Positions 3,192 through 19,628 of a stretch of 25,029 nt of DNA are shown here, one piece after another. The stretch is taken from the IMG/VR virus record IMGVR_UViG_2802429227_000004, positions 1-25,029 of that record; one strand, given 5' to 3'. Source of the DNA: a virus (Duplodnaviria; Heunggongvirae; Uroviricota; Caudoviricetes). Position 1 is the stretch's first letter, and every line of letters starts with the position of its first letter. The notes under the pieces were generated by a model. That model was given only the letters and a program-made list of their open reading frames with translations. It made no database searches and had not been told where the DNA came from. Made by a program: the position numbers and the translations under genes.

Positions 3192-3242
3192 TCCTCATTC
3201 ACTTTAGTAGCGCATTAAGCGTGATTTATAAGGAGATTTTTA

Positions 3243-3896
3243 ATGATTAATGAAGAACAATTTGTAAAAGTTCCTATGTGGATTCTAAAAATAAGCCAAG
3301 TAAACGGGCATAAATTTACAGATAGTGCTAAAAACCTTTACTGCTATCTGAAAGGGTTTGATCGTGCATTTCCCTCTTACGCTAAGATAGGCGATGTTTT
3401 TGGCATAACACCAAGAGCAGCAGAGGAAAGGGTTAAGAAATTGCTCGAAATGGGATTAATTATAAAAGATGCACGACCAGGAAGTTCTAATGTCTATCAA
3501 GTGGTAGATATTCCACAAGAAGAAGCTAGACAAGAAGCCAAGACACAACAAGAAGCTACTGTTAAAGCTGTTCCTGATCAGCTTCCCCCTACGGAAGATA
3601 ATAAAGAGTCTTCTTTTGATGTTCTTGATGATTGGGATGCGCCTTTGCCGTGGGAGACGGAAGAAACACCTGTTTCATCAAGTGAAAAAGTAACTAATGA
3701 TAATGAGGAGGATGTGTTAGAGAATTTTGCCTCTCTTATCTGCCAGGAGAAAAACACCAGAACAGGAGGATCATCATTTATAGAATTTGCAAATTCACTA
3801 GCTTATAGACACGGGCTAAAACGACCAAATGGTATTGAGGCATATTTTGCTAAGAAACATCCCAAAGTATATGAAGACTTTGATATTCCATTTTAA
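3243..3896 (+). CDS. Putative replication initiator-like protein with winged helix-turn-helix N-terminal domain and acidic C-terminal region (217 aa)
   Basis: AAGGAG RBS; N-terminal segment (VPMWIL...NLYCYL...YAKIGDVFGITPRAAEERVKKLLEMGLII) resembles HTH domains of plasmid/phage Rep proteins; acidic DVLDDWDAPLPWETEE tail; sits next to iterons. Confidence 0.5.
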   Translation: MINEEQFVKVPMWILKISQVNGHKFTDSAKNLYCYLKGFDRAFPSYAKIGDVFGITPRAAEERVKKLLEMGLIIKDARPGSSNVYQVVDIPQEEARQEAKTQQEATVKAVPDQLPPTEDNKESSFDVLDDWDAPLPWETEETPVSSSEKVTNDNEEDVLENFASLICQEKNTRTGGSSFIEFANSLAYRHGLKRPNGIEAYFAKKHPKVYEDFDIPF

Positions 3897-3907
3897 TAAG
3901 GAGGGTT

Positions 3908-4186
3908 ATGATTCAATATTTAGTAAAAAATCAAGTAGACAGAATTCAGTGTAATGACACAGGAAAACGCATCTACGAAACACTTGCTTACCTCTATAAA
4001 GGAAAGCCAACACCGCTAAAATATAGCGATGTGTTACATCGAGCAGGGTGCTCTGAAGATGGTTTAAAATTCTGGCTGAAACAGCTATCAAACTTCGGTG
4101 TTATAGAGATTAAAGAATTATCTTTCTCTACATTCAATCTCAAAAGACTGGATAAAGAAATAGACTTCATCTATTCCACTCTCTAA
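3908..4186 (+). CDS. Hypothetical protein (92 aa), possibly a small DNA-binding protein
   Basis: ORF-track ORF with AAGGAGGG RBS; immediately follows the Rep-like gene. Confidence 0.5.
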   Translation: MIQYLVKNQVDRIQCNDTGKRIYETLAYLYKGKPTPLKYSDVLHRAGCSEDGLKFWLKQLSNFGVIEIKELSFSTFNLKRLDKEIDFIYSTL

Positions 4187-4318
4187 AATCTCTCTATGTA
4201 ATTAAAATATAAAAGGAAAACATTATTATGATAGTAGCTATGTATTGGTTATTGTTCTTTCTCACGTTAGAAACATATTTCGGGGTGTTTTCCTTTAAAA
4301 GAAAAGGAAAAGTAAATA

Positions 4319-4726
4319 ATGGCAAAAAGAAAAAACAACGTTGTTAAGAAAATCGGTGATTCAGCTTCTCTTCTAAGTAAACCTAAATCTATTCTAAGAC
4401 GTAAAGACTTTAAAGAGCTAGTTACGCTCACCAAGCATAATAGCGCCCCTGGCGAATGGAAAACAGAGATCATAGAACATTCTCCCTCTGTGCCTTGTGG
4501 AGATGAATTTAACGCCTTACAAGAAATCTTATCTTCAACACCTGGCGTATTCTGGAAACCTAGAAAAAGAAAAGAGTATATTGTTAGTTCTGACGAACTC
4601 CGCAAATACCAGATTTTAGGATTTGAAGACTATAACCACTACGTCGGTTATCTCGCCACCAATGGCCTAAATAATTTAGTTCCTGAATTCCATTTAGATA
4701 ATGATGATCACTATGGAGACTTTTAA
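4319..4726 (+). CDS. Hypothetical protein (135 aa)
   Basis: ORF-track ORF, basic N-terminus; antisense ORF 4267..4605 treated as a shadow. Confidence 0.5.
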   Translation: MAKRKNNVVKKIGDSASLLSKPKSILRRKDFKELVTLTKHNSAPGEWKTEIIEHSPSVPCGDEFNALQEILSSTPGVFWKPRKRKEYIVSSDELRKYQILGFEDYNHYVGYLATNGLNNLVPEFHLDNDDHYGDF

Positions 4727-4727
4727 T

Positions 4728-5063
4728 ATGAACAAAAACACGTATGACACAATTTATTCACTAATTAATTATTATGAGGATGATTACCTCCTGCCTTTAA
4801 ACCGTGCTGAACTTGAAGCACACAAAAACTCCACGCCAGCGGCACTAAATGAGGCGTTTAAACACTGGGATTTAGCTGTGAATGCCTTTGAGATGCTCTG
4901 TAAGCGTGTAGAGATGCTCTGTAAGCGTGAAAACGCATACCTGACAGCCGATCAGATATGGGAGCTATCAAACTGGATAGAAGATATTGAATCTGATGTT
5001 CGCTATGTGGGAGATGGCCTTATCGAACTCGCTCAACGCTTAGCCATTATCACAGAAGAATAA
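4728..5063 (+). CDS. Hypothetical protein (about 111 aa) containing a 21 bp tandem duplication
   Basis: ORF-track ORF 4701..5063; ATG at 4728 preferred because it follows the upstream stop with GGAGA about 10 nt upstream. In-frame tandem repeat gagatgctctgtaagcgtg at 4890..4931. Confidence 0.5.
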   Translation: MNKNTYDTIYSLINYYEDDYLLPLNRAELEAHKNSTPAALNEAFKHWDLAVNAFEMLCKRVEMLCKRENAYLTADQIWELSNWIEDIESDVRYVGDGLIELAQRLAIITEE

Positions 5064-5092
5064 AAAAAGCAACAAAAAAGTTGTAAAATATC

Positions 5093-5121
5093 TTGACATT
5101 TCATATATTGTATGTTAATAT
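5093..5121 (+). promoter_or_regulatory. Strong sigma70 consensus-like promoter
   Basis: TTGACA (5093..5098), 17 bp spacer, TAATAT (5116..5121). Confidence 0.6.
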
Positions 5122-5127
5122 AATTAT

Positions 5128-5345
5128 ATAGGGTGATTATTTTTCCTTTATTGGTTCGATATTAAAAATTCTTCTTGTCGTTAAAGGGGAGTAAAATCTC
5201 CGCTCCCCGCTTCTCCTCCTCCTTAAGTGTCATTATTACCTCTTTTTTCCTTTGTTATGCATACATCTTGGAGTATGCATAACATAGGGTAATTACATAG
5301 GTACAAGTTAATAAAAGGCGGCTCTAAATGCTGCCTTTTATTTTG
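5128..5345 (+). ncRNA. Candidate small RNA or structured leader/attenuator (about 215 nt) between promoter and intrinsic terminator-like hairpin
   Basis: Begins just downstream of the 5093 promoter; hairpin ggggag...ctcccc (~5186..5208); perfect palindrome ttatgcatac-N8-gtatgcataa (5255..5282); hairpin aaaaggcggc-tctaaat-gctgcctttt followed by a T-rich run (5313..5345); no convincing ORF on the + strand. Confidence 0.3.
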
Positions 5346-5406
5346 CCCGTTATACAACTTAAAAGTTGTATTTCTTACTTTAAACAAGGTAACAAGGTTT
5401 ATATAA

Positions 5407-5619
5407 ATGTTGTTTTTAAATGATAAAGAGCAAATCATCAAGTATCGCGATGAAATGCTAAAGATCAATCCACAAATTACCGAAATGGTAGCTAAATACG
5501 CTGGGTGTTCTGTCGAAGAAGTGGAACGTTGTGTTGAAAAATATTTTTCTCCTTCTTCTCCGTCTACACCTTCCCTTAATGAATTAATCAAATTAAAAGC
5601 TAAGGAGATTACTAAATGA
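5407..5619 (+). CDS. Hypothetical small protein (70 aa)
   Basis: ORF-track ORF; 4 nt ATGA overlap with the next gene suggests translational coupling. Confidence 0.45.
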   Translation: MLFLNDKEQIIKYRDEMLKINPQITEMVAKYAGCSVEEVERCVEKYFSPSSPSTPSLNELIKLKAKEITK

Positions 5620-5978
5620 TTATTGATTTAGACACTCTATTTCCAGTTCGAAAGACTTTCACAGATATTGTAAGTTATTGTACTGATCCGTTTGCCTCTG
5701 TAGAAAGCAAGGTTTTTGCTTCTCTTCCTGCTGATGTTGAATGCGGCGACTTGATCACCAGAACTGGCGCTAAATATGTATCAGGAGATGATATCTATGT
5801 TGTTATGAGTGAGTTTTTAACGGCTGGAGACAACAAGCCTGTAGATGTGCTACGTAGCAATGCTGGCCTTGTCTGCATCAAAGCTGATGCGCTGAATGCT
5901 GTAAGTGAAGCAGCAAAAACAGCATTAATTAAAAAAGGCTTCCAGCTTGAAGGGTTCCACTCTGTTTTCACTTCTTAA
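5616..5978 (+). CDS. Hypothetical protein (120 aa), first gene of a putative structural-like module
   Basis: AAGGAG RBS; tightly linked to the 342 aa gene. Confidence 0.55.
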   Translation: MIIDLDTLFPVRKTFTDIVSYCTDPFASVESKVFASLPADVECGDLITRTGAKYVSGDDIYVVMSEFLTAGDNKPVDVLRSNAGLVCIKADALNAVSEAAKTALIKKGFQLEGFHSVFTS

Positions 5979-5996
5979 TAAAAGGAATAATAATAA

Positions 5997-7025
5997 ATGA
6001 TTCTAGGCAATGATTACGTTGATTTGATCCCTCTGTTCCAGGCACACAACACTAGAAATTATCTACTCTCTACCCTTGATTTTACGGATTCTGTAGGGGT
6101 TACATCTCATAAAGTAGCTGTTTCCCAGCTTGTCGAAAGCAACGAATCTCTCTTTAACAAAGAGACAAGCCGTTTTAGTTCTGAACACAATGTTACTAAG
6201 CGTGAACAAGGTAAAGAATGGCTTATTGAAATCCCGTATTTTCTTCGTGAAGATGTGATCCGTCCTTCTGATGTTCAAGGCAAGCGTAAGCCTGGCACTG
6301 ATTTTCAGGAAACACTCACTGATATCTATGCTGACTATGTTGCTAAACACCACGTAGCGTATCAGCGTACAAAAGAGAGCGTGTTGGCGGCTTCTTTGTT
6401 CTCTGGCAAAACTTACACGCCTAAAACTGATGATGTTCTTATCGAGTGGGGCAAGCTGTTTAACGTATCAGCTATGAAAGCCACTGTGAACGCTTCCAGC
6501 ACTGACACCACGAAGATTTTTAAAGAATTTGATCAGATTGCTACCAATATTTTTGAAATCACACAAAGCCAGGCGTCAGCGGTAGAAAGAATTGTTGTTT
6601 TCTGTAAACCGGAAGCCTTCTCTGCAATTCGATTCTCTGCGGGTATGGCAAACGCATTCCAGTATGTAAGCCCACTGGAAGAAGGGAACGTTGTGTATCA
6701 GCGTCGTGACCTGCTGCCAGGGGTGACAGCGTTCACTATTCCAGGAACTAACATTGATGTTATTAAACTGGTAGATCCGCTACATCTTGCACATATGACC
6801 GCAGACGCTGTAGCTGTGCCTAAATTCGCTAAAGGCTCTAACGTATATCAGAACATCTACGGGGCTGCTTCCAGCACCTTTGAACTGATTAATGCCGCTC
6901 CCGCTGAGGTTTATAGCTACAGCTATGAATCTTCTCGTGGTGATGCTGTTAACGTTGTTACAGAGAATAGCCAGATGGTTGTAAACCACGGTGTAGGCTT
7001 CTCTGTTCAAATCACTGTGAAATAA
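5997..7025 (+). CDS. Hypothetical protein (342 aa); tentative homolog of the HK97-fold major capsid protein family of T7-like phages (gp10-like)
   Basis: Long ORF with RBS. Segment RIVVFCKPEAFSAIRFSAGMANAFQYVSPLEEGN (DNA about 6585..6700) matches, from memory, the T7 gp10 region RVFYCDPDSYSAILAALMPNAANYAALIDPEKG (pattern FCxPxxxSAI...MxNAxxY...EG); similar size to gp10A. Not verified by any search. Confidence 0.5.
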   Translation: MILGNDYVDLIPLFQAHNTRNYLLSTLDFTDSVGVTSHKVAVSQLVESNESLFNKETSRFSSEHNVTKREQGKEWLIEIPYFLREDVIRPSDVQGKRKPGTDFQETLTDIYADYVAKHHVAYQRTKESVLAASLFSGKTYTPKTDDVLIEWGKLFNVSAMKATVNASSTDTTKIFKEFDQIATNIFEITQSQASAVERIVVFCKPEAFSAIRFSAGMANAFQYVSPLEEGNVVYQRRDLLPGVTAFTIPGTNIDVIKLVDPLHLAHMTADAVAVPKFAKGSNVYQNIYGAASSTFELINAAPAEVYSYSYESSRGDAVNVVTENSQMVVNHGVGFSVQITVK

Positions 7026-7043
7026 TATTTTAACGTGTAATAG

Positions 7044-7080
7044 AGGCGTGGCGTGTATTCACGCTTCGCCTTTTTTTATT
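7044..7080 (+). terminator. Rho-independent terminator candidate after the 342 aa gene
   Basis: ggcgtggcgtg-tattc-acgcttcgcc imperfect hairpin followed by ttttttt. Confidence 0.5.
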
Positions 7081-7111
7081 TATTTTTTAAATTTTGAGAG
7101 GTGATTAAAAT

Positions 7112-7315
7112 ATGGAAGTGATTTTGAAATCAAAAAATGGTTTACACGTACATTTAGATGCTAATGATTCTAGAGGCTTGTTAAATCTGAAATATCTATG
7201 TTCTCTTTTAGATGTTCCATATGAAGGCGTAAAAGCCCGTATGTTCAGACTAAACGAGAGTATTGATCAGGCTCTACACCATTTCTTAAGTAAAGAAGGT
7301 GGTAAAAATGATTAA
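7112..7315 (+). CDS. Hypothetical small protein (67 aa)
   Basis: ORF-track ORF with GAGAGG RBS region. Confidence 0.45.
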   Translation: MEVILKSKNGLHVHLDANDSRGLLNLKYLCSLLDVPYEGVKARMFRLNESIDQALHHFLSKEGGKND

Positions 7316-7329
7316 TAAGGGGATTTTAA

Positions 7330-9162
7330 ATGTTAGAAATTAACACTTCTAAAATTAAGAACACAGTTACATTTAGTGTAGATAAAGACAGCTTGAAAAA
7401 AGCGAAAGACTCTATTACAGGCTTAAAGAAATTCGCCGAAAATATCAAGCCAGCTAAGCTGAGATTTGATAGTGTCACTAAAGGCTATAAGAAAGCACAA
7501 AGTGAAGTAGACAAGATTGCTCAACAGAAAGCTAAAACAGAAAAGCAGAATCAAAGAGCACAAGCTGCCGCAGCAAGAGCACAGGCAAGGCAACAGCAAC
7601 AAATAGCAGCACGTAAAGAGAAAGCAGAATTAAAGCTCCTCGATGTGTCAAGCTCTATCAGTGCAATGCACCGCCTTTCTGTAGCTGAACAATACAAAGC
7701 TATTGCACAGGCGCGTGAGATAGCCAAACAATACGAACAAGGGGCTATCTCGCTTGCACGTATGAATAGTCAGATGAAACGCCTACAACAGCAACAACGT
7801 AAGATTAATGGCAACAGAAAAGCTCAATTAGCCCCCGTTAAGGGAGGATCAGGGAATTCCGCCACGATGGGCGCTCTGTTATTTGGAGGCGCTACGGCTG
7901 CCGCTGGCGTGATGGCTGTTAGTAAAGCCTCTGAATTTATGGCTAACAGCTTCGCTAACGCAGAGACGCAAGGGGAGCTAATTCAACGGGCCAAGCTGGG
8001 CGGTGTAGACGTTAACCAGATGTATAATATTACAGAATGGGCGTATAAAAACGGCGTTGACTCTATGATGGGTGATCAAGGGGCTAGGAAATACCTGGAT
8101 CAGATGAAAGATGTTAGGGAACGTGCCGCAAAATCCTATAGTGAAGCTGAATTGGTGAAAGACAAGAAAACCGGAAAATCTGAATGGAAAGGCGGTGATA
8201 ACGCTATTAATGAACTTCTAAACATCGGTGTTATTAACAAAAGCGACCTTAAAAAATTTGCTGATAATCCGGCTGGATTAATTTCTAAGGCTGTTAATGG
8301 AATGATGAAAAAAGGGTTTTCAGACTCCCAAATTGGACAACGTTTAGAAGACCTGGGCGATGATTTGATGCTTACGTCAAAATATTGGCAACGTTCCGTT
8401 AAAGATGTACAAGAAAGTATTAATCAGCAAAAAGCCTCTGGAAAATGGCTAACAGAAACACAGCAAGACTCTATTGTTAAATTCAGAGAACTAAACAGAC
8501 AGCTTTCACAGCTTTCTGATGCAAGACAAGTAGCATTCGTAGACGGCTTTATGAAATCTCTTGATCCAAAAGTAACGGAAGAGTTTATGAAAAACCTTTC
8601 TAATCTCACTCCGTATTTTACGAAGCTGGGAGAAGCTACAGGAAGTCTCTTTGAGGCCATTATGAAGATTGTAAACTGGTTTAATCGTAATGATGATAAG
8701 ACAGATGCTATTCAGAAAAATTTAGGTGATGCACCGCCATTAAGCAATGACGGAATGAAACAGCATCTTTCTAATCTCGTTCCTGATCAATATAAAGGCG
8801 CTGGCACTGCAACAACAGCACCTGATAATAGTCATTCTCTCTTTAATACGATTAAGGGATGGCTTTTCGATGATAATGCTTCTTCTGTGTCAGATGTAAA
8901 AATGTCAGTCAATGAAGCACCGATAAGCAATCTCAAACAGGGTGCTTTAAATAATCTTGCAATGACAACTCCGGCTTATAATTTATCTCCTGTGTTTAAT
9001 CTGAATCCTACATTTGAAGTGGTAACAGAGGTTCCTCTTACTATTAATTCAGACACATCAAGATTAAGCGATTATGTGGATTTTACAGCGAGAGCAAGTC
9101 GGGATAGCTTCTTGAAATCATTAACATTAACCAGCTTATCAGGACAATCTAACGGCGGGTAA
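7330..9162 (+). CDS. Hypothetical large protein (610 aa): N-terminal K/Q/A-rich coiled-coil region, Gly/Ala-rich hydrophobic segment, then C-terminal globular region; tape-measure-like or ejection/internal-virion-like architecture (tentative)
   Basis: AAGGGG RBS; AQAAAARAQARQQQQIAARKEKAELK coiled-coil-like stretch; GGSGNSATMGALLFGGATAAAGVMAV hydrophobic segment; no Walker or nuclease motifs seen. Confidence 0.6.
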   Translation: MLEINTSKIKNTVTFSVDKDSLKKAKDSITGLKKFAENIKPAKLRFDSVTKGYKKAQSEVDKIAQQKAKTEKQNQRAQAAAARAQARQQQQIAARKEKAELKLLDVSSSISAMHRLSVAEQYKAIAQAREIAKQYEQGAISLARMNSQMKRLQQQQRKINGNRKAQLAPVKGGSGNSATMGALLFGGATAAAGVMAVSKASEFMANSFANAETQGELIQRAKLGGVDVNQMYNITEWAYKNGVDSMMGDQGARKYLDQMKDVRERAAKSYSEAELVKDKKTGKSEWKGGDNAINELLNIGVINKSDLKKFADNPAGLISKAVNGMMKKGFSDSQIGQRLEDLGDDLMLTSKYWQRSVKDVQESINQQKASGKWLTETQQDSIVKFRELNRQLSQLSDARQVAFVDGFMKSLDPKVTEEFMKNLSNLTPYFTKLGEATGSLFEAIMKIVNWFNRNDDKTDAIQKNLGDAPPLSNDGMKQHLSNLVPDQYKGAGTATTAPDNSHSLFNTIKGWLFDDNASSVSDVKMSVNEAPISNLKQGALNNLAMTTPAYNLSPVFNLNPTFEVVTEVPLTINSDTSRLSDYVDFTARASRDSFLKSLTLTSLSGQSNGG

Positions 9163-9195
9163 TTCCCGCCATAACATTACAAGGAAATTATTATT

Positions 9196-9909
9196 ATGGC
9201 GACCGCCGGGATTTTAACCATACGTGCAGCAAATACTCCAGAACAACACGTTCAGGCTGTTTACAAAGCAGAACAAGATATAAACTCTACAAAAAACGAA
9301 AATAGCAAAGCTAATAAAACAAAAGGAGAAAATGGATTTGCTATTGTTACCAGTGGGCTGGCATCTTCTGGCAATGACGTTTATGAAAATTATATGGCAC
9401 TGGCTTTTGACAGTGTAGACGATGTGAACGTGAGACGTTCGGCAGATGTTACAAGCTACCCCGTAGAAAATGGTGCTACTGTGTCTGATCACGTTCAAAT
9501 TAAAAACAATAAGTTTTCTCTTAAAGGTAGGATCACTGAAACACCGATTAAAAGCGATCCTGGCTTGCTAAAGAGTGCAGGGGTGAACGGGAACAGAAGA
9601 TCATTAGCTATTGATTACCTGAATCAGATTATGGACAGTAGACAGCCTTTTCTTCTTGTTACAGAAAATAAAACTTTTGAGAACGTTGTTTTAACAGGCA
9701 TCGAATACACAGAAGAGGCAAGCGAATCCCTGGTATTTGATCTTAGCTTTGAGCAGATCAGGCTCGTTTCGTATGGCACTGTAAACACTGTAGCTATCAA
9801 AACACAGCCATCTAAGAACATCGGGGCTAATATGAAAAAACGTGTTAACACTGAAAAATCAAGTAGTGAAGGTGAAGACACTATTACTCCTGCCTTTAAA
9901 CAGGAATAG
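9196..9909 (+). CDS. Hypothetical protein (237 aa), last gene of the + strand operon
   Basis: AAGGA RBS; no signal peptide; followed by an inverted repeat shared with the convergent integrase gene. Confidence 0.55.
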   Translation: MATAGILTIRAANTPEQHVQAVYKAEQDINSTKNENSKANKTKGENGFAIVTSGLASSGNDVYENYMALAFDSVDDVNVRRSADVTSYPVENGATVSDHVQIKNNKFSLKGRITETPIKSDPGLLKSAGVNGNRRSLAIDYLNQIMDSRQPFLLVTENKTFENVVLTGIEYTEEASESLVFDLSFEQIRLVSYGTVNTVAIKTQPSKNIGANMKKRVNTEKSSSEGEDTITPAFKQE

Positions 9910-9950
9910 CCGTAAACGCCTCTAAAACGCTCTGTAACGATGTAATTATA

Positions 9951-9984
9951 AAAGAGGCTACCAATCTATGTTGAAGCCTCTTTA
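9951..9984. terminator. Inverted repeat between convergent genes (possible bidirectional terminator)
   Basis: aaagaggct ... agcctcttt, a perfect 9 bp stem with a loop of about 16 nt. Confidence 0.35.
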
Positions 9985-9990
9985 TTGCGT

Positions 9991-11325
9991 CTATGGCGTT
10001 GTTTTACGCCTTAAATTTGATTTTTTATTGATTGATAAGCCTTTCTCTATTTCAGGGTAGCGTAGAAGCTCAATATATTTTTTAAGCTCTACTGGAGAAG
10101 CTGCATTCTTGCTATATGTGCGGAATGTCTCTGTATTACCGCGTGTATGGCCCAGGAGAAGGGCGATCCTGTCTTCTGGAATTTGATTTCGATCAAGAAG
10201 CTGTGCTACTCCGTGTCTCAGAGAATGAAACACCTTCCTTTCTGTTCCCTTTTCCCCTAAAGCCTTTCGTTTAGCCCTGGTAAATCTCTGCGTGTGCCAC
10301 GTGGAACGCTTGCCGTCTGCACGTTCTGTGATGCTGGCGTGATAGAACAAAAAGCCATTATGAGGCTTTTCACGCAGCGACAACACCAACGGAGTGATAA
10401 GGCTATGTACAGGCACAACACGTGCCGCAGCTTTCGTTTTTCCCTGTGTGATTTCAAAACACAGCACACCTTCGATCTCTTTCACATCGTCTATTGTGAG
10501 ACTTGCTATCTCATTGATCCGCATACCTGTATATAAACCGATAAGACACAAAGCCATCATTTCTTTGTTTTCTGCTGAATTACCGGAAAATACTTGCAAC
10601 ACCTGCAATAGCTCTTTGTTAGAAAATGCCTCGTAGCTCTCTCTACTTTGTGCCACATCAAGCCTATGCCCTCGCCAGGGGGAGAGCGCCCTTTCTGGTG
10701 CATCGTGGTAACGTGATGAAGCTAACTCCCATAGCTGGGCCATTGGGCTGATATAATTTGCAATTGATTGTTGTGAAAGGGTTTTTTGCATGTGTTCAAT
10801 CCAGCCTGTAACAGTGGTGCGGCTCACATCTTGCAATGCAATATCAGGCTTTTTACGGTAGGAGAGAAACATCTCTACCGCTTTTCTTGCCTTAGCTAAA
10901 GTGGCTGGCTTCTTCTTCGTGCTGTTAATTGTCAGGTAGATTTCAAGAATTTTAAGCAATGACGGACACGAAGACGCTGTATCTTGCATTCTGGTAGCTG
11001 TTTTGGCGTATTTAGCCTTACTGCGTAACAGCTCCAGCGTGTTCTCTATTGTGCTGTTTACAGGAGCGACACTCTCGCGTAAGCAATGGTATTCATCTGC
11101 AATCTGATCACGCTTTCTACGTGCAACACGAAGGTTACTTGTATGCAGACTCCTGACAAACGTCCTTTTTCCTTCAAAAAAGGGCTGCATATACACAGGC
11201 AGCGTGATCCTTAGATAGTAGTTACCGTAAGAATCACAGATTATGTATTGATTGGGCTTGTATCTCATAAACTCCCCGGCTAAAGTGTCGGAGCGTTTGT
11301 AATGTGAAAATTGATTGTAACGCAT
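9991..11325 (-). CDS. int: Tyrosine site-specific recombinase (integrase), 444 aa as given; alternative start at the second Met (about 11268)
   Basis: C-terminal catalytic signature: GMRINE (Arg), HSLRHGVAQ (His-x-x-Arg), LLGH (His), TFRTYSK (Tyr nucleophile). Confidence 0.85.
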   Translation of the reverse strand: MRYNQFSHYKRSDTLAGEFMRYKPNQYIICDSYGNYYLRITLPVYMQPFFEGKRTFVRSLHTSNLRVARRKRDQIADEYHCLRESVAPVNSTIENTLELLRSKAKYAKTATRMQDTASSCPSLLKILEIYLTINSTKKKPATLAKARKAVEMFLSYRKKPDIALQDVSRTTVTGWIEHMQKTLSQQSIANYISPMAQLWELASSRYHDAPERALSPWRGHRLDVAQSRESYEAFSNKELLQVLQVFSGNSAENKEMMALCLIGLYTGMRINEIASLTIDDVKEIEGVLCFEITQGKTKAAARVVPVHSLITPLVLSLREKPHNGFLFYHASITERADGKRSTWHTQRFTRAKRKALGEKGTERKVFHSLRHGVAQLLDRNQIPEDRIALLLGHTRGNTETFRTYSKNAASPVELKKYIELLRYPEIEKGLSINKKSNLRRKTTP

Positions 11326-11447
11326 AGAAAATGATGATTTTTTCTATAAGATTCAATCAATTAGTAATGGTCGTAGGTGATGGCATTAACACGAGATTAA
11401 TCGAGTGTTTTACTCCTATTATCGGCACCATTCTAACGTCTCCCCAA

Positions 11448-11597
11448 GTCTACTCAAGTATTTAAAAAACTCTTATAATCCGCATGTTAGCGCCCCTTTT
11501 AGTCTTTTGATGTCTACTTAAGTACCCCAAAATCTACAGTCAATTGGGGGTACTTTTGGGGGTATTTGCTGTTCGGTTTAGTGGAGGTACCCCCAAG
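11448..11597. repeat. Direct and inverted repeats in the 271 bp spacer between the two integrase genes (candidate att core or integrase binding sites)
   Basis: gtctactcaagta (11448..11460) and gtctacttaagta (11512..11524); inverted pair taccccaaaa (11523..11532) / ttttgggggta (11553..11563); extra ggtacccccaag at 11586..11597. Confidence 0.5.
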
Positions 11598-12811
11598 TGA
11601 AACTCAATGCCCGTCAAATAGACACTGCCAAGCCAAAAGAGAAGGCTTACAAGCTGGCTGATGGTGGTGGTCTGTATCTCTTGGTAAAACCTAGTGGAGG
11701 AAAATATTGGCGCTTCAAATATCGTGTAGCTGGTAAAGAGAAGCTGTTAGCACTAGGTGTGTATCCTGAAGTTACCTTGGCTGATGCTCGTGCAAAACGT
11801 GAAGAAGCTAAAAGGGGGATCGCTGGGGGTATCGATCCGATGGAAGCGAAACGAGAGGAAAAGATTGCCCGGGAAACGCAGTTAAACAACACCTTCAAAG
11901 ATATTGCCCTTGAGTGGCACAGCAGCAAATTAAAAAAATGGTCTGCTGGTTATGCTTCAGACATCCTCGAAGCCTTCAACAAAGATGTGTTCCCTTACAT
12001 TGGCAAAAAACCAATCGCCGAAATCAAACCACTTGAACTGCTGAATGTGCTGCGGCGCATCGAGGGGCGCGGTGCTACCGAAAAAGCCAAAAAAGTGAGG
12101 CAGCGATGCGGGGAAGTTTTCCGCTATGCAATTGTCACTGGACGTGCTGAGTATAACCCTGCACCGGATCTCACCAGCGCGATGCAAGGTCATGAATCTA
12201 ATCATTATCCTTTCCTCACAGCCAAAGAATTACCTGATTTTTTCAAGGCATTGTCCAGTTACTCAGGAAGTGCATTGGTTGTTATGGCGGCTCGTCTACT
12301 GATTATCACCGGTTTGCGGACTGGCGAACTGCGCGGTGCATTATGGGATGAAATCGATCTCAACAAGGCTATCTGGGAGATACCTGCTTCACGGATGAAA
12401 ATGCGTCGCCCTCATGTGGTGCCTTTGTCTAAGCAGGCTCTTTCGCTTATTGGGCAGATTAAAGAATTAACTGGCAATTATCCGCTTATGTTTCCCGGCC
12501 GTAATGATCCAAGGAAAACAATGAGCGAGGCTAGCATAAACCAAGTATTTAAACGCATCGGCTATAACGGAAAGGTTACTGGTCATGGATTCCGGCACAC
12601 CATAAGCACCATTTTGCATGAGCAGGGCTATAACACCGCGTGGATAGAGACACAGCTCGCACACGTCGATAAAAACTCAATTCGTGGCACATACAACCAT
12701 GCGCAATATCTGGATGGTCGCCGGGAGATGCTCCAGTGGTATGCCGACTATATGGATTCGCTCGAGCATGGCGGAAATGTGGTGCATGGTGAGTTCGGAA
12801 AATGCGGGTGA
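11597..12811 (+). CDS. int: P4-type tyrosine integrase (404 aa), GTG start
   Basis: N-terminus KPKEKAYKLADGGGLYLLVKPSGGKYWRFKYRVAGKEKLLALGVYPEVTLADARAKREEAK is the hallmark arm-binding domain of P4-family integrases; catalytic HGFRHT ... QLAHVD ... RGTYNHAQY. Confidence 0.9.
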   Translation: MKLNARQIDTAKPKEKAYKLADGGGLYLLVKPSGGKYWRFKYRVAGKEKLLALGVYPEVTLADARAKREEAKRGIAGGIDPMEAKREEKIARETQLNNTFKDIALEWHSSKLKKWSAGYASDILEAFNKDVFPYIGKKPIAEIKPLELLNVLRRIEGRGATEKAKKVRQRCGEVFRYAIVTGRAEYNPAPDLTSAMQGHESNHYPFLTAKELPDFFKALSSYSGSALVVMAARLLIITGLRTGELRGALWDEIDLNKAIWEIPASRMKMRRPHVVPLSKQALSLIGQIKELTGNYPLMFPGRNDPRKTMSEASINQVFKRIGYNGKVTGHGFRHTISTILHEQGYNTAWIETQLAHVDKNSIRGTYNHAQYLDGRREMLQWYADYMDSLEHGGNVVHGEFGKCG

Positions 12812-13881: not shown

Positions 13882-14079
13882 ATGGCAAACTCTCTTATTC
13901 GTTTAACGGAAGTTCAGCGTAGAACTGGATATAGCAAGGCATGGATTTATCGCCTTATGGGGCAAGGTAAATTTCCTGCATCAGTTAAAATTGGCTCGCG
14001 AGCTATTGCTTTCGTTGAGAGTGAAATTGACGAGTGGATTAATCAGCGTATTGCGGAATCACGCGGAACAGCTACCTGA
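13882..14079 (+). CDS. alpA: AlpA-family phage transcriptional regulator/excisionase-like protein (65 aa)
   Basis: LIRLTEVQRRTGYSKAWIYRLMGQGKFPASVKIGSRAIAFVESEIDEWI matches the AlpA HTH family; position just after a P4-type int; AAGGTGA RBS. Confidence 0.85.
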   Translation: MANSLIRLTEVQRRTGYSKAWIYRLMGQGKFPASVKIGSRAIAFVESEIDEWINQRIAESRGTAT

Positions 14080-14157: not shown

Positions 14158-15006
14158 ATGAAACAGCGAAAAACGCCCGTACAGGGGCAGGGCTTCGTTC
14201 GGCCTGAAAACCAGAATCTGCAAAATTTCGGCGAAATTATCCCGGTTATTTCCGGCGTTATTGGCGGACGTGAAACCAATATTGTTAGCGCCAGAGCGTT
14301 GCATAAGGCGCTGGGTGTGAAGCGTGATTTCACAACCTGGATTAAAGGACGCATTGATGAGTACGGATTTAAAAAGGGCGTGGATTTTGAAGTTGTAGAT
14401 AATTTGTACTTTGATTCCCCGAAACGGGGGAACCAAAGTGTAAATATTGAACAGTTTGATTTTGATTGGACAACAAAGCGCGGCGGTGATCGTCGCAGTG
14501 AAGACTATTTGATCTCCACGAACATGGCGAAAGAACTGGCGATGGTCGAGCGCACCGAACAGGGCCGCGCCGATCGTCAGTACTTCATCAAATGCGAGGA
14601 GGAGCTACACAAGGTAGCGCCAGTGCGTTCCGCAGCGTTACGCCGGGAACTGAAAGCCCGTATCTCCGTTGCCAGCTACTTTAAGCCGATGTGTGCCGCG
14701 CTGGAGGCGTACCGGGCTGAACTGGGTAAAAACACACTCCAGCACCACTACACCACGGAAGCCAATATGCTGGCGCGTATCGTGCTGGGTGGCATGACTG
14801 CAAAACAGTGGACGCAGGCGAACGGCATCACAGGCGAACCACGCGACCACATGAGCACGTTGCAGCTTGAGCACCTTTCTTACCTTGAGCAGAGCAATAT
14901 CACGCTGATTGAGTTAGGCCTGGACTACCACCAGCGGAAAGCTGAATTAATTCGTCTTTCGCAGCGTTGGTTAGCCCGTCGCATGGAGGAAAACAGCCAT
15001 GTGTAA
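14158..15006 (+). CDS. Phage antirepressor-like protein (AntA-like N-terminal domain, KilA-C-like C-terminal region), 282 aa
   Basis: Segment VSARALHKALGVKRDFTTWIKGRIDEYGFKKGVDFEV resembles AntA/Rha-type antirepressor N-terminal domains; AGGAG RBS. Confidence 0.65.
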   Translation: MKQRKTPVQGQGFVRPENQNLQNFGEIIPVISGVIGGRETNIVSARALHKALGVKRDFTTWIKGRIDEYGFKKGVDFEVVDNLYFDSPKRGNQSVNIEQFDFDWTTKRGGDRRSEDYLISTNMAKELAMVERTEQGRADRQYFIKCEEELHKVAPVRSAALRRELKARISVASYFKPMCAALEAYRAELGKNTLQHHYTTEANMLARIVLGGMTAKQWTQANGITGEPRDHMSTLQLEHLSYLEQSNITLIELGLDYHQRKAELIRLSQRWLARRMEENSHV

Positions 15007-15420
15007 CGCTCTGACCGTTACAAAAAGAGAAAGCGCCCCGTTGCCGGAGCGCCTTTGTGAACGAATAGCCTACTGCGCCATATTGCTTACTGTCTACGAG
15101 GCAGATTATAGCGTTGTGGTCGCACAGAGTGAAGGCGCTGATCACCGTTACTACAGCACGCCAGAAATGCAGAATATTTTGCTGCAAAATGTCGTTGGTC
15201 ACGCTGTCCGGAAAGCAAAAAATTTTGCTGGTGGCGCGACTGATGCGATTTTGTCAGGTCGCAAGGTGATGATCAATCTGATGTCTAATTTCGTTCTGGA
15301 TAAAACAAAGGCGACCGCAGAGGGCCACCAGTGGGAAAGCTACACACTTGAACACATCGCCAACAATGCCAGATTTGCGGCTGGTGGGCAATGTGATCAG
15401 TGTGCTGGCTTGCTGGTGGG
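14999..15420 (+). other. ORF of uncertain extent; only about the first 130-140 codons of the 512 aa ORF-track call look protein-like, and the 3' end is undefined
   Basis: Start overlaps upstream stop as ATGTGTAA. After about codon 140 the translation becomes Cys/Ser/Arg-rich low complexity and runs across a well-supported minus-strand gene (15679..15984) and into gene 16172..16537 in the same frame. Confidence 0.25.
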
Positions 15421-15678
15421 CTATTCCTGCTCTTTAACATTGCCATGCCGCGATGTTTTCCAGGTATGCGACCCCATTTTTGTGCGCCTGTACTCTTTAA
15501 GGAATTTCTCAAGGATAAACGCACAGGGCGCGAATCTGTCTGACTCATATTCGTACGCTATCTTTCTGCGCTGTCTTTTCCGTGCCGGTGATGGTGTATT
15601 GGTCGATTCTTTGTTGGTCATTCTGTGTACCTGTAAAGCAATGCGCCGGAGTTCCTCACACCACGGCGATGATAGTTA

Positions 15679-15984
15679 TTATTCTGATTCTTTGGCCTTG
15701 CGGCGCTGGAGTTCTTCACGTGCGACGGTGACGAGCTGCCCGATCTCCTCGACAGCTTTGACTCCGATTTTTTCCACCTGCGCCAGTGCATTGAGCGAAG
15801 AAACCAGGGGATTTTCTCCGCTTCCTTCTGCCTGGCGGCGGGCGATCTCACCACGCATGGCGGTTACTATGAATCCGGCGTTGCTTTCGCCGTCCAGTTT
15901 TACGGATTCCATGCCTTCAAAAGCATCATGTGGGATACGAATTGAAATCTGTTTTGATTTGTCGTTGATAGTGTTTTTTGCCAT
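15679..15984 (-). CDS. Ribbon-helix-helix-like DNA-binding protein (101 aa), candidate repressor divergent from the replication operon
   Basis: AGGAGA RBS 6 nt upstream of the ATG at 15982..15984 (ORF-track call 15679..16023 uses an upstream Met without RBS); KQISIRIPHDAFEGMESV strand-helix pattern. Confidence 0.65.
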   Translation of the reverse strand: MAKNTINDKSKQISIRIPHDAFEGMESVKLDGESNAGFIVTAMRGEIARRQAEGSGENPLVSSLNALAQVEKIGVKAVEEIGQLVTVAREELQRRKAKESE

Positions 15985-16171
15985 GTGCATTCTCCTAAAC
16001 AAAAGATGTGATTCAGTATACACAAAAAAGAATCACAAAAAATACTTGACCTGTGATTCAGTTAAATTTAATTTAAATCACACCTCAGTAAGAGGATATA
16101 AACGACAACGCCCCGAACTGTTTGCGGCAGTAGCGGGGCGTCTAACCAAACCGTTAAATGAGGTAACGATT
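15985..16171. promoter_or_regulatory. Divergent promoter/operator region with TGTGATTCAG repeats
   Basis: gatgtgattcagtatacac (~16005), gaatcacaaaa (~16030), cctgtgattcagttaaat (~16049), aaatcacacc (~16075); TTGACC -35-like element at ~16045. Confidence 0.5.
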
Positions 16172-16537
16172 ATGGCTGGGGCACAGCATACCCAAACTCA
16201 CCCTAAATTTATATACACCTTCCTGGCGGTGCACCGTGATTGCATGGCTGACGGTAAAAACACTGTTCATGTAGCCGCCGATACGCTGGTTGATGCCTGC
16301 GAGATGCTCAATGACATGGGCTATATCTCGGCAACATGGAAAGGGCGCGAAGAAAACACGTTGTTTATTCAGAAATGCGAAAACAATTTTATCTGGCGTT
16401 TTATCGCCCTGAGTACGGCACAACCGCGCGTGATTCACATCGAGGCCACCAGCGAACAGGAAGCACGCCAGCAATCTCCTGATGGCTGCGTGATGGTATT
16501 CGCTGCCCGTATTCGCCAGGAGGTGGAGCATGTGTAA
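16172..16537 (+). CDS. Hypothetical protein (121 aa), first gene of the small-gene/primase operon
   Basis: GAGG RBS then ATG at 16172; in the ORF track this is the in-frame tail of the 14999..16537 ORF. Confidence 0.6.
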   Translation: MAGAQHTQTHPKFIYTFLAVHRDCMADGKNTVHVAADTLVDACEMLNDMGYISATWKGREENTLFIQKCENNFIWRFIALSTAQPRVIHIEATSEQEARQQSPDGCVMVFAARIRQEVEHV

Positions 16538-16754
16538 TGCAACATGGCCTGATGCAGCGGTAGACGCTATCAAAACGCTGATGGATTCACTTATTGAGAT
16601 TTCTGCTATCGCTGGTGTGGCGCATAAACACGCAGCCAGAGAATCAGAATGCATCTCCCATTATTTAGCATTTGTGCAGCTGAAAGCCGATCAGGCACTG
16701 GATAAGGCCGGAAAAATTATCATGGCTGATGTACAGGAGGTGCACCATGCATAA
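16530..16754 (+). CDS. Hypothetical small protein (74 aa)
   Basis: Start overlaps upstream stop as ATGTGTAA (16530..16537). Confidence 0.55.
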   Translation: MCNATWPDAAVDAIKTLMDSLIEISAIAGVAHKHAARESECISHYLAFVQLKADQALDKAGKIIMADVQEVHHA

Positions 16755-17112
16755 CCTGTCAATTTCTGACCTTAACAGCATTCAGTTTGACGAGATATTT
16801 TCCGGGCAGCTACTGGTTAACGTGGAGAATGGACGCGTGGTAAGTAATTATCACCTGCCGGATGGTGCAATTGCCGGAAGCGTTGAAGCATTGCTGGAAC
16901 TGGCGGAACGTGCGCGACTGATTAAGCCGTCAACGTGCCATCACGATGATGATCTGCATTTTACCGGGTGTATGGTGAGTCACTACGAAAACGGCGTTGA
17001 AGTATCCTGCGAACGTCTGCGTGATGATTGCTGTTTCGGCACACTGCCGGAATTTATCGAATTGCTGACCAGTTGCGGTTATCAGGTCATTCAGGGGGGT
17101 AAACATGCGTGA
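16747..17112 (+). CDS. Hypothetical protein (about 121 aa)
   Basis: GGAGG RBS; ATG at 16747 overlaps upstream stop as ATGCATAA; ORF-track call starts 18 nt earlier. Confidence 0.55.
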   Translation: MHNLSISDLNSIQFDEIFSGQLLVNVENGRVVSNYHLPDGAIAGSVEALLELAERARLIKPSTCHHDDDLHFTGCMVSHYENGVEVSCERLRDDCCFGTLPEFIELLTSCGYQVIQGGKHA

Positions 17113-17338
17113 TGATCGTTTTAATTCCCTGAAACAGGAGTTTGATGGCGCACCGGAAGATACATCGGGCGCATTGTTGAGCATTGCTGACATGATGAAA
17201 GCTGCATATTTTCTTATCAATACCAGGGGCTACAAGTCAGAGGGTGAAATGATTCTTAGTATTGCGTCGGACTATGCTGAATATGTGGCAGAGACGCGTT
17301 ACAGAAGAAAATCTCTGGAGGATGTAAGCCATGCATAA
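17105..17338 (+). CDS. Hypothetical small protein (77 aa)
   Basis: Start overlaps upstream stop as ATGCGTGA (17105..17112). Confidence 0.55.
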   Translation: MRDDRFNSLKQEFDGAPEDTSGALLSIADMMKAAYFLINTRGYKSEGEMILSIASDYAEYVAETRYRRKSLEDVSHA

Positions 17339-17531
17339 TCATGAAGCGCATGTACCCGTAGTGCTTAATGTGCCAGATGATTTCACCGGACGCGTGCTGG
17401 TTTACCTTGATAAAGAAAAAGTGAAATCACAATGCCGACTGAAAAGTAATGAGATTGTGGGTTCTCCTGAATTTTTTTCTGAACTCTGTATTCGTGCAGA
17501 AATAAAACCGGAACTGCTGACAGGAAAATAA
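17331..17531 (+). CDS. Hypothetical small protein (66 aa)
   Basis: Start overlaps upstream stop as ATGCATAA (17331..17338). Confidence 0.55.
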   Translation: MHNHEAHVPVVLNVPDDFTGRVLVYLDKEKVKSQCRLKSNEIVGSPEFFSELCIRAEIKPELLTGK

Positions 17532-17535: not shown

Positions 17536-17826
17536 ATGAAAAGGAAAAATTCTGGCTTTACTGCCAGCGGTCTCTCTCGGCCTGAAATCAGACACGGAGA
17601 TATTTACCGCGACACCAGACGTGGGGGACGAGTGGTTATTCGTCACGTTACGCCAGGCAATATCACCTACCGCCGTGAGGCTTACGAATATGACTGCGTA
17701 ATGCCGCGCCGTCAGTTTGAGCGTGATTTTATTCTGGTGGAAAACAAACAACAGGCAGTGGCGAGACGTGCAGCCACGAATATTAAAAAAATCCGGGCAA
17801 TGTTGGTTGCGGGAGGTAAGAAGTGA
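17536..17826 (+). CDS. Hypothetical basic protein (96 aa) immediately upstream of the primase
   Basis: ATG 5 nt after the upstream stop; 4 nt GTGA overlap with the primase gene start. Confidence 0.55.
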   Translation: MKRKNSGFTASGLSRPEIRHGDIYRDTRRGGRVVIRHVTPGNITYRREAYEYDCVMPRRQFERDFILVENKQQAVARRAATNIKKIRAMLVAGGKK

Positions 17827-19628
17827 AAAACGCACCGAATTTAAAATATCAGCCGAAGGATAAATTCACCGAGGTAATCATTTTTGCCGGGACGGATGCT
17901 TACGCCCATGCTCAACACTGGATTGAAAGCGAAGGACGAAAACACGGCGATAACGTGCCTCCTGTTTACCTGGGGCCAAAGCAACTGGCAGACCTGGCGA
18001 ATATCCGCATTGTCGACGATGAACGCCGCTTTGCGCGTGTCTATCTCGCGGGGGAGATAGAGCCAATCCAGATCAATGCTATTGCTGAAAAGCTGGCGCT
18101 GGCTGGTGTACAGGACGCGAAATTATACAAAGGTATCACCGACCGGGAGCCGGAAAACTGGCGCGACTACCTGCAACGGATCCGCGAACAGGCAGAGAGT
18201 GGGGAAGTTTCAGCGATGAAATTAGCCACAAAAAATATTGACCTATCTAGGCCAGCACTAAATCAGATGGGAGCCAGCCAGAGAGGGGAAGTGTTACTTG
18301 AATATTATGGAAGAGCACTGGCTATAAATGATGATTCTGATGTAGTTCACCATTACAACGGAATTGTCTGGGTGCCTGTATCTGATAAGGAACTCCAGCG
18401 GTCTATGGCGAAGATTTTTATTGATGCTGGAATCAGTTATTCGCAAAACGCCATTAAATTTGCCGTAGACACAATGAAATTGAGCCTGCCTGTTATGGGC
18501 GGGGCAGACAGGAATCTTATTGGATTCAGTAACGGGGTATTTGATACCCGGACGGGAAATTTTCGGGAGCATAACAAAAATGACTGGTTGTTAAATGCCA
18601 GTGAATTACCGTTCAGCCCACCAGCAGAGGGGGAAACGCTGGCAACACATGCGCCGAATTTCTGGAAGTGGCTGCGTCGTTCGGTGGCAGATAATGATCG
18701 TAAAGCTGATCGCGTACTGGCGGCATTATTCATGGTGCTGGCGAACCGGTACGACTGGCAGTTATTCCTTGAGGTAACAGGCCCAGGCGGAAGCGGTAAA
18801 AGTGTGATGGCTGAGATTTGTACCATGCTGGCGGGTAAGGCCAACACAGTATCGGCAAGCATGAAGGCTCTGGAAGACGCAAGGGAACGCGCGTTAGTAG
18901 TTGGCTTTTCGCTGATTATCATGCCGGATATGACTCGCTACGCTGGCGATGGTGCAGGAATTAAGGCAATTACTGGCGGCGACAAGGTGGCAATTGATCC
19001 GAAACATAAAGCCCCCTACTCCACACGTATTCCGGCAGTAGTGCTTGCGGTAAACAATAACGCCATGTCATTCAGTGACCGAAGCGGGGGGATCTCGCGT
19101 CGTAGGGTGATATTTAATTTCTCTGAGGTCGTACCGGAGAACGAACGCGATCCCATGCTGGCGGAAAAGATAGAAGGCGAACTGGCGGTAGTGATTCGCC
19201 ATTTGCTAACACGATTTACCGACCAGGACGAAGCTAAAAGACTACTTTATGAGCAGCAAAAATCAGAAGAAGCGCTGTTGATAAAGCGCGAAGGTGATTC
19301 ACTGGTGGACTTTTGCGGCTATCTGATGTCGTTGGTTAAATGTGAAGGAATGATGGTGGGCAATGCGGAAATAGTGCCATTTAGCCCGAGGCGATACCTG
19401 TATCATGCTTATTTAGCCTATATGTCAGCGCATGGCCTGGGAAAACCAGTATCACTGACACGCTTTGGTACTGATATGCCAGGAGCTATGGCGGAATACG
19501 GAAAGGAGTATAAGCGGGCTAAATGCACTAAAGGCCCGGATAAAGGGCGAGTGATAACAAATGTTCTGTTAGATGATGATGCTGATGGCTGGTTGCCAGC
19601 AGCTACAGGGATTAACGACAGAACATAA
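17823..19628 (+). CDS. Phage/plasmid primase-helicase, P4 alpha/D5 family (601 aa)
   Basis: Walker A P-loop VTGPGGSGKSV in the C-terminal half; overall size and architecture of satellite pri-rep proteins; followed by an iteron origin. Confidence 0.8.
   Translation: MKNAPNLKYQPKDKFTEVIIFAGTDAYAHAQHWIESEGRKHGDNVPPVYLGPKQLADLANIRIVDDERRFARVYLAGEIEPIQINAIAEKLALAGVQDAKLYKGITDREPENWRDYLQRIREQAESGEVSAMKLATKNIDLSRPALNQMGASQRGEVLLEYYGRALAINDDSDVVHHYNGIVWVPVSDKELQRSMAKIFIDAGISYSQNAIKFAVDTMKLSLPVMGGADRNLIGFSNGVFDTRTGNFREHNKNDWLLNASELPFSPPAEGETLATHAPNFWKWLRRSVADNDRKADRVLAALFMVLANRYDWQLFLEVTGPGGSGKSVMAEICTMLAGKANTVSASMKALEDARERALVVGFSLIIMPDMTRYAGDGAGIKAITGGDKVAIDPKHKAPYSTRIPAVVLAVNNNAMSFSDRSGGISRRRVIFNFSEVVPENERDPMLAEKIEGELAVVIRHLLTRFTDQDEAKRLLYEQQKSEEALLIKREGDSLVDFCGYLMSLVKCEGMMVGNAEIVPFSPRRYLYHAYLAYMSAHGLGKPVSLTRFGTDMPGAMAEYGKEYKRAKCTKGPDKGRVITNVLLDDDADGWLPAATGINDRT

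Follow-up and report, generated by a model that had tools for sequence, protein, structure and literature searches.

Serial 8-nt gene overlaps in the early operon of a P4-family satellite as probable sites of translational coupling

Analysis of a 25,029-nt viral DNA (Caudoviricetes; IMG/VR record IMGVR_UViG_2802429227_000004; this whole stretch is hereafter called the window) revealed five gene junctions at which the downstream gene starts inside the end of the upstream gene, with an overlap of 8 nt (a spacing of -8). The junctions belong to the early ("left") operon of a P4-family satellite or phage-inducible chromosomal island (PICI) at a tRNA-Thr-type att site, and the five overlaps are the usual boundaries of a P4-type early operon. 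The geometry of the junctions, their conservation, the homology of the operon to that of P4, a nested long frame and a conserved internal promoter motif together suggest that the octamers are cistron boundaries that are probably linked, by termination-reinitiation assisted by Shine-Dalgarno (SD) sequences, into one translated chain.

Results and Discussion

Five junctions with an overlap of 8 nt

The initial annotation had placed five octamers of this kind in the window, and reading of the sequence found every one of them at its position. The junctions are given below with their neighbourhood; L numbers denote related loci.

14999..15006, + strand: junction 1, ATGTGTAA; AntA stop and Eta-like open reading frame (ORF) start; GGAGG 9 nt upstream; identical in E. 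ruysiae L002
16530..16537, + strand: junction 2, ATGTGTAA; Eta/Kil stop and start of the gene for a 74-amino-acid (aa) protein; AGGAGGTG upstream; P4 orthologue GTGCGTAA (kil-epsilon)
16747..16754, + strand: junction 3, ATGCATAA; AGGAGGTG upstream
17105..17112, + strand: junction 4, ATGCGTGA; GGGGGG 5 nt upstream
17331..17338, + strand: junction 5, ATGCATAA; GGAGG 9 nt upstream; homology with L025 stops inside the octamer

At all five junctions the ATG starts a long ORF and lies 5 nt before the TAA or TGA that ends the preceding ORF, so that the co-directional -8 geometry is present throughout, and an SD-like run is found 5-9 nt 5' of every ATG. An annotation-free count of (A/G)TGNNT(AA/GA/AG) octamers on both strands of the window gave 67; only five of the 67 have at least 60 open codons on each side, and these are exactly the five junctions, all on the + strand and within 2.3 kb. 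A 4-kb copy of the region that is 100% identical occurs in E. coli K56-43 (NZ_CP053079), where the Prokaryotic Genome Annotation Pipeline (PGAP) calls the -8 overlaps at 16530, 16747, 17105 and 17331, in agreement with four of the five junctions. No gene is called there after 14999, so junction 1 is unannotated in that genome. The five junctions are consecutive only if the 512-codon frame that starts at 14999 is counted as a gene.

The ORFs that flank the junctions are matched by PHROG or NCBIfam families. The four small ORFs downstream of junctions 2 to 5 have full-length PHROG family matches beginning at the annotated methionine, and are real genes under purifying selection, with ratios of non-synonymous to synonymous change (pN/pS) of 0.10-0.34 against their orthologues. 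No Pfam family was found for any of the four small proteins. For the ORF from 14999 the support is the openness of its frame, with no visible amino-acid constraint.

Overlaps of -8 form a recognised class of coupled gene pairs (PMC12548453, PMC10666635) and are the third most enriched spacing in bacteria and archaea (PMC12548453; PMC10666635), ranked in the text of PMC10666635 after -4 and then -1. In Haloferax volcanii 62 of 2,511 pairs are at -8 (PMC10666635), and among the first 70 co-directional pairs of E. coli K-12 in Table S2 of the same paper the counts are two at -8, six at -4 and four at -1. Since the -8 rate is about 3% per junction, a run of four or five such junctions cannot be put down to chance (a probability of about 1e-6 to 1e-8 for each run, independence assumed).

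Occurrence of the -8 junction across the satellite family

A scan for the primase, with one genome per species, gave 23 loci (Escherichia, Raoultella, Pluralibacter, Kluyvera, Citrobacter, Klebsiella, Enterobacter, Lelliottia, Serratia, Rahnella, Erwinia, Pantoea and others), and five annotated E. coli loci, P4 and vB_KppS-Ant were added to the set. Junctions upstream of the primase were called with a simple ORF-chain caller.

Comparison of the junctions in homologous elements, which the initial annotation had proposed as a check, revealed -8 to be the commonest spacing in 29 loci from at least 12 genera (49 junctions at -8, 36 at -4, 11 at -11 and four at -1). The order was the same after collapsing to distinct protein-family pairs (24, 15, seven and three, respectively). 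For the stretch from the Icd-like gene to the primase, the PGAP calls of six E. coli loci gave 16 junctions at -8, 10 at -4 and five at -11. Raoultella ornithinolytica (L022) also has a run of five -8 junctions. The annotated P4 genome itself contains -8 junctions at kil/eta-epsilon (GTGCGTAA) and at epsilon-orf151 (ATGTTTGA). Judged from these sequences, the uniformity of the junctions is a family-wide property and not the outcome of local duplication. Part of the operon is matched in 1,410 of 5,426 complete E. coli genomes.

Anatomy of the junction motif

Alignment of 39 distinct -8 junctions gave the consensus gaGGAGGTgcacC ATG CgT AA. The motif common to the family is GGAGGTG-N4-ATG-NNT-RA, with a strong and often extended SD (GGAGGTG) within the last codons of the upstream gene and a nearly fixed distance between SD and ATG. 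GGAGGTG offers 7 nt of complementarity to the 3' end of 16S rRNA. Read in the upstream frame, the SD encodes Glu-Val, the base before the ATG together with AT encodes His, and the G with the next two bases encodes Ala or Val. Because these codons are dictated by the SD/ATG motif, upstream proteins that are otherwise unrelated share the endings ..EVxHA or ..HV; in the same way ATG-NNT-(A/G)A fixes the first downstream codons, and hence the downstream proteins start M-x-(N/K/D/E/S/R), as in MCN, MHN and MRD.

A base bias is also present at C -1 and C +4, positions that the SD, the start codon and the stop codon do not require. A five-pair mini-hairpin (GUGCA-CCA-UGCAU) was considered for the C at -4/+4 and was rejected as a general feature, being complete in seven of the 39 distinct junctions and having at least four pairs in 17. 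Both ATGTGTAA junctions contain AUGUG (14999-15003 and 16530-16534), in which the internal GUG reads GUG-UAA, a start-stop in the upstream frame. AUGUG sites in E. coli can initiate in two frames (PMC9841429).

Gene order and the long Eta-like frame

The gene order is that of integrase, AlpA/Vis, AntA, a 512-codon Eta-like ORF with a nested Icd/Kil-like ORF, four small genes, DUF4222 and a P4-alpha-like primase, as listed below.

11597-12811: integrase
13882..14079, + strand: AlpA/Vis-like helix-turn-helix (HTH) excisionase-regulator (PHROG 'excisionase and transcriptional regulator'; PGAP, HTH regulator); heads the long, late-promoter type transcript
14158..15006, + strand: AntA/AntB (Bro-network) protein, 282 aa (Pfam PF08346 AntA, E 7.6e-24; PHROG anti-repressor Ant; also called by PGAP); stop in junction 1
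14999..16537, + strand: Eta-like open frame, 512 codons from the ATG (520 from stop to stop)
16172..16537, + strand: Icd/Kil-like ORF, 121 aa (NCBIfam NF033153 phage_ICD_like, 81 bits), in frame at the 3' end of the Eta-like ORF
16530..16754, + strand: 74-aa protein (PGAP call; phrog_5146, E 1.7e-48; pN/pS 0.34 against L025)
16747..17112, + strand: 121-aa protein (phrog_340; pN/pS 0.10)
17105..17338, + strand: 77-aa protein (phrog_24341, E 3e-46; pN/pS 0.32)
17331..17531, + strand: 66-aa protein (phrog_340, E 5.7e-18; pN/pS 0.12 against L002)
17536..17826, + strand: DUF4222 protein (Pfam PF13973, E 1.4e-19); +4 to the upstream gene and -4 (GTGA) to the primase
17823..19628, + strand: P4-alpha-like DNA primase (phrog_864 DNA primase), last gene of the chain

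The initial annotation had counted six small proteins along this stretch; the second of these ORFs is instead the 512-codon Eta-like frame with the nested Kil/Icd-like gene. The frame contains no stop, against 26 and 31 stops in the other two frames. It runs antisense to two minus-strand genes and then continues across an internal promoter and leader into the Icd/Kil frame. An open frame that reaches at least 300 codons and closes at the Icd-like stop was found in 17 of 25 related loci, which belong to several genera; the other two frames there carry about 20 stops each. Over the first 100 codons the window and E. ruysiae L002 differ by three synonymous and 13 non-synonymous codon changes, distributed evenly among the codon positions; in this small sample no amino-acid constraint is visible. 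A frame that is kept open while its protein is unconstrained is what is expected if the act of translation matters. Ahead of the frame, the AlpA stop in L003 and L014-L018, loci of other genera, lies inside the next SD (cggtg TGAGGTG gggt ATG, a gap of +8), before the Eta-like start, and the vis-eta junction of P4 is ATGA (-4); the head of the chain, too, looks coupled.

The Icd/Kil-like ORF and P4 Kil both score 76.1 bits against NF033153, and the start of the former (MAGxQHTQ) is conserved together with its SD across many loci. This ORF is the first cistron after an internal promoter motif (TTGACC at 16047-16052, a 17-nt spacer and TAATTT at 16070-16075) that lies inside the long frame and is predicted to be a promoter. 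The arrangement TTGAC/A-17 nt-TAnnnT occupies a fixed position in nine loci, in which the flanking operator-like words vary by locus. At 121 aa the Icd/Kil-like ORF is about twice as long as P4 Kil (65 aa), with an apparent partial first copy of the domain (HPKFIYTFLAV) and a full second copy at residues 73-116; its identical copy in K56-43 is labelled by PGAP as a pseudogene without an N-terminus.

In P4, the 65-aa Kil is the end of a 217-codon frame. The account of P4 given in PMC10111431, which summarises Forti et al. 1999, describes a constitutive promoter inside eta, with Kil as a truncated Eta. In the same account translation of full-length Eta depends on the late promoter upstream and is coupled to the alpA homologue; this translation blocks termination, so that the late transcript continues through eta and the downstream genes.

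Translational coupling at the octamers

At each octamer a ribosome ending one cistron would have its peptidyl (P) site 2 nt past the next ATG, with the SD still covered. A ribosome held in this way could re-initiate on the following cistron, that is, by SD-assisted termination-reinitiation. The chain would then run from AntA through the Eta-like frame or Kil (Icd-like), the 74-aa, 121-aa, 77-aa and 66-aa proteins and DUF4222 (at +4) to the primase (at -4). According to PMC10111431, the P4 operon is transcribed to its end only if the first cistron is translated, the first cistron being kil from the constitutive promoter inside eta, or full-length eta from the upstream late promoter. An unbroken coupled chain would extend such translation-dependent protection against premature termination as far as the primase gene.

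Several results weigh against this interpretation. Overlaps of -8 are reported to re-initiate less efficiently than shorter ones such as -4 or -1 (PMC10666635), and with SDs of such strength each cistron could initiate by itself. Folds of 91 nt around the junctions were no stabler than those of shuffled sequence (z from +0.42 to -1.55), a result that gives no support to masked start sites. No Rho-dependent terminator was located here. The internal promoter was not called by a consensus promoter scanner, and its placement comes from the comparison of loci. In Rfam searches for C4 (the P4 CI immunity RNA) and isrK (the seqA target), the window had no match when the gathering threshold was applied, nor did the stretch around 15600-16700 when E was relaxed to 10, and 10 window-type loci were negative as well. 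Because P4, the positive control, and L024 gave 74.9-81.4 bits for C4 and 60.8-70 bits for isrK, a C4-type RNA is either truly absent or too diverged to be detected, and the control logic of P4 may therefore not transfer in full.

One alternative is independent initiation, in which the overlaps reflect the tight packing of a small element, each gene has its own SD and translation of the upstream gene is irrelevant. Every junction does have a good SD at a normal distance from its ATG, no significant local structure would block free ribosomes, and the reported inferiority of -8 to -4 and -1 in re-initiation (PMC10666635) points the same way. However, this explanation does not account for the excess of -8 over -4 in the family, when in the sampled K-12 pairs -4 is about three times as frequent as -8, nor for a junction that persists, with changing neighbour genes, from P4 to remote relatives, and it ignores the translation dependence documented for the P4 operon (PMC10111431); we consider it unlikely. 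Fusion of adjacent small proteins by programmed +1 frameshifting at the octamers is extremely improbable. The downstream frame is +1 to the upstream one with an SD upstream, which resembles prfB in outline, and phrog_2512 (154 aa) spans the 74-aa protein and then the 77-aa protein. Against this, the stop is not preceded by a slippery or shift-prone codon, and each downstream ORF begins with a conserved methionine that has its own SD. The distance from SD to stop in prfB differs from that at the octamers. In L031 the 74-aa-like and 77-aa-like proteins are encoded by adjacent separate genes, and a single mis-annotated or truly fused member would account for the PHROG profile.

Paralogy and exchange of gene cassettes

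The initial annotation had also suggested that the junctions arose by duplication of a junction cassette, and had named an all-against-all alignment of the small proteins as a check. BLAST revealed one paralogous pair, the N-terminal part of the 121-aa protein and the 66-aa protein (34% identity over 61 aa, E 1e-5), and no other related pair among the small proteins. Both members begin with MHN, match phrog_340 and follow ATGCATAA. Since these two proteins are paralogous, the pair of ATGCATAA junctions can be attributed to gene duplication, and the suggestion holds for this pair and fails for all other junctions. The proteins downstream of the two ATGTGTAA junctions share only MCNA. Overlapping matches of the 74-, 121- and 77-aa proteins to phrog_2512 were examined as a sign of further paralogy and rejected, as the profile looks composite: of its 154 positions the first half aligns to the 74-aa protein and the second half to the 77-aa protein. 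In L031 (2787-3222) the gene for the 74-aa-like protein is followed immediately, at -8, by that for the 77-aa-like protein. The profile and this adjacency are a hint of a joint function of the two proteins, or of a fused form elsewhere.

The idea that all five similar junctions arose inside the island by duplication of a cassette made of a junction and a gene is accordingly to be weighed on the 121-aa/66-aa paralogues behind their ATGCATAA octamers and on the MCNA shared after both ATGTGTAA junctions; set against these are the unrelatedness of the other small-protein pairs, the presence of the motif between unrelated genes in other genera and in P4, and the fact that the tripeptides MCN, MHN and MRD are set by the octamer. 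We regard it as very unlikely. A different explanation, which is compatible with coupling and accounts for the likeness of the junctions, is that the junction serves as a standard linker for cassette exchange, the accessory genes being swapped by recombination at the boundary or by selection for it. A gene starting with ATG-NNT-RA carries an out-of-frame stop for any upstream ORF, and the tail of the upstream gene supplies the SD. At least 11 different protein families follow the Icd/Eta family, mostly at -8. Megablast blocks in E. coli have boundaries at query positions 525-533, 1106 and 1335, or 16524-16532, 17105 and 17334 in window coordinates, all of them in octamers. The window and L025 are alike through '...GATGTAAGCC ATGC' and carry different genes beyond it; L031 lacks the 121-aa gene, and there the 74-aa-like and 77-aa-like genes meet at -8; and ATGCGTGA travels with the MRDIYH gene even when the upstream stop lies elsewhere (L027, L031). 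The bias toward the non-required C at -1 and C at +4 also fits a linker. These comparisons indicate that gene cassettes are exchanged exactly at the octamers. As a full explanation of the junctions the linker is possible without being probable, since the shared stretch of about 10-20 nt is short for homologous recombination, random recombination followed by selection for working boundaries would look alike, and junctions at -4, -11, +1 and +5 occur in the same operons.

Coupling and exchange could be combined in a broader proposal, which we put forward as doubtful. P4-family satellites would use one plug-in junction module (extended SD, fixed spacer, CATGC-N-T-RA, -8), so that accessory genes could be swapped at the octamer without breaking the ribosome track from alpA through the Eta-like frame to the primase. 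The Eta-like frame would be kept open across the antisense repressor gene and its own promoter only for the sake of translation; much of the Eta-like protein would be irrelevant, with translation as the signal and the -8 chain as its relay.

Control region, leader and a candidate immunity gene

The features within the Eta-like frame, between the AntA gene and the Icd/Kil-like start, are as follows.

15421..15621, - strand: small hypothetical gene, 66 aa (PGAP; phrog_21027, E 6e-31), downstream of YlcI/YnfO; homologues in L025-L027, L030 and L031
15679..15984, - strand: YlcI/YnfO-family gene, 101 aa (NCBIfam NF041551, E 5e-18; phrog_6522), antisense within the Eta-like frame
16009..16090, no strand assigned: divergent control region with TGTGATTC-type operator-like repeats and the internal + strand promoter motif
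16100..16171, + strand: leader with the hairpin GCCCCG...CGGGGC (inner ACUG/CAGU stem), followed by UCUAACCA and then the kil SD (UGAGGU)

The YlcI/YnfO-family gene is a candidate immunity repressor, and its product matched a ribbon-helix-helix (RHH) fold below threshold only. An antisense small gene is present at the equivalent position in all window-type loci examined, and those of YlcI/YnfO type (59-101 aa) were found in L002, L003, L008, L010, L015, L018, L021, L022, L025-L027 and L031. At this place within the frame, P4 and L024 have the C4/CI RNA and the isrK/seqA element. Taken with the Rfam results above, a small antisense protein gene seems to have replaced the P4 RNA immunity factor in the window-type branch. 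On the minus strand at 15030-15055, a hairpin of terminator type followed by a T-run would end the YlcI transcription unit; it is read as SAPLPERLCE in the Eta-like frame, and the same stretch occurs in L027.

Three TGTGATTC-type words surround the divergent promoters. Eight other loci keep the promoter hexamers while the repeated word changes in step at all three sites, as would be expected of immunity-specific operators. The leader hairpin is conserved in 16 loci with two covarying pairs, and UCUAACCA is almost invariant. The wider leader (16075-16200) has a fold z of -2.66, and the leader matched no Rfam family. Unrelated phages (Klebsiella P12620-1, mEp460 and Morganella IME1369_01) contain stretches with about 79% identity to the DNA at 16105-16232, and the predicted 5' end of the transcript (ACCUCA, 16082-16087) can pair with the kil SD.

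Limits of the island and neighbouring genes

The left end of the island is marked by a partial tRNA 3' end at about 11364-11429. The zones of integrase with AlpA, Bro network and primase are present in order, and the late zone gave a weak TerS-like match only (phrog_57, E 2e-6). The primase gene, identical in K56-43, is labelled there by PGAP as frameshifted; in the window its 601-codon ORF is intact and equal in length to that of E. ruysiae L002. The left 11 kb (1-11430) is a second mobile element and not the proA-thrW chromosome flank of K56-43, with genes for a capsid E-like protein (5997-7025), a Dit-like tail protein (9196-9909) and an integrase on the minus strand (9991-11325). The window therefore covers two islands in tandem.

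Significance of the junctions

Results from this study tie an oddity of sequence to a known design, the translation-dependent read-through of the P4 early operon, and this design is kept in a class of islands that is very common in E. coli. If such a coupling relay operates, expression of the replication genes of the satellite could be switched at a single ribosome-binding site, and the small genes would be made in a fixed order and proportion, a hint of joint action. The apparent replacement of an RNA immunity factor by an antisense protein gene and the exchange of cassettes at the octamers are perhaps of greater interest to specialists. Current understanding is not overturned by these findings; the feature is real and tidy, and not surprising.

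Comparison with known systems

The P4 left operon consists of vis, eta/kil, epsilon, orf151, orf106 and alpha. The operon in the window resembles it in gene order, with a Vis/AlpA homologue at the head (P4 Vis against the L002 orthologue of the AlpA/Vis-like protein, E 6e-13), a Kil/Icd-like domain and an alpha-type primase at the end (49% identical to P4 alpha over residues 141-592 in tblastn). In both, kil is the end of a longer frame that starts upstream of an internal promoter (predicted in the window), the cistron that follows kil begins at -8 with an extended SD before it (GGAGGTGTCCC GTGCGTAA in P4), and the next junction is also at -8. The small proteins of the window showed no homology to P4 epsilon, orf151 or orf106 at E up to 0.01. 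Unlike P4, which has two -8 junctions, the window has five; its Eta-like frame is separated from the AntA gene by an additional -8 junction; and CI RNA (C4) and seqA (isrK) are absent, with a YlcI/YnfO-type antisense gene in their place.

The immI region of phage P1 (c4 RNA-icd-ant) also has a first cistron of the Icd family whose translation is needed for the overlapping or following gene, and it is regulated at the icd ribosome-binding site through the c4 antisense RNA. The window differs from it in having no C4 match and in its downstream genes.

The junctions share the geometry of the NTGNNTRR class of -8 gene pairs, with the SD inside the upstream gene (PMC12548453; PMC10666635; PMC6728339). 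Genome-wide this class is a minority, well behind -4 and -1, whereas in this operon family it is the majority and forms runs of up to five. In overall layout the element resembles the four-zone plan of Gram-negative PICIs (integration, Bro, replication and late) as set out in PMC10111431, with Int and AlpA, AntA with the Eta-like frame, the primase, and a late region with a weak TerS-like protein. That paper notes that some Bro zones carry immunity RNAs, and the passages of it that were consulted do not describe a run of -8 junctions; a search of PMC10111431 by term found no mention of YlcI, DUF4222 or RHH proteins.

The -8 class, translational coupling, the nested eta/kil of P4 and the two -8 junctions in the P4 annotation are thus already known. 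What differs from P4 is the longer run of -8 junctions and their majority in the operon family, the exchange of genes at the octamer, and the apparent replacement of the CI RNA module by an antisense gene.

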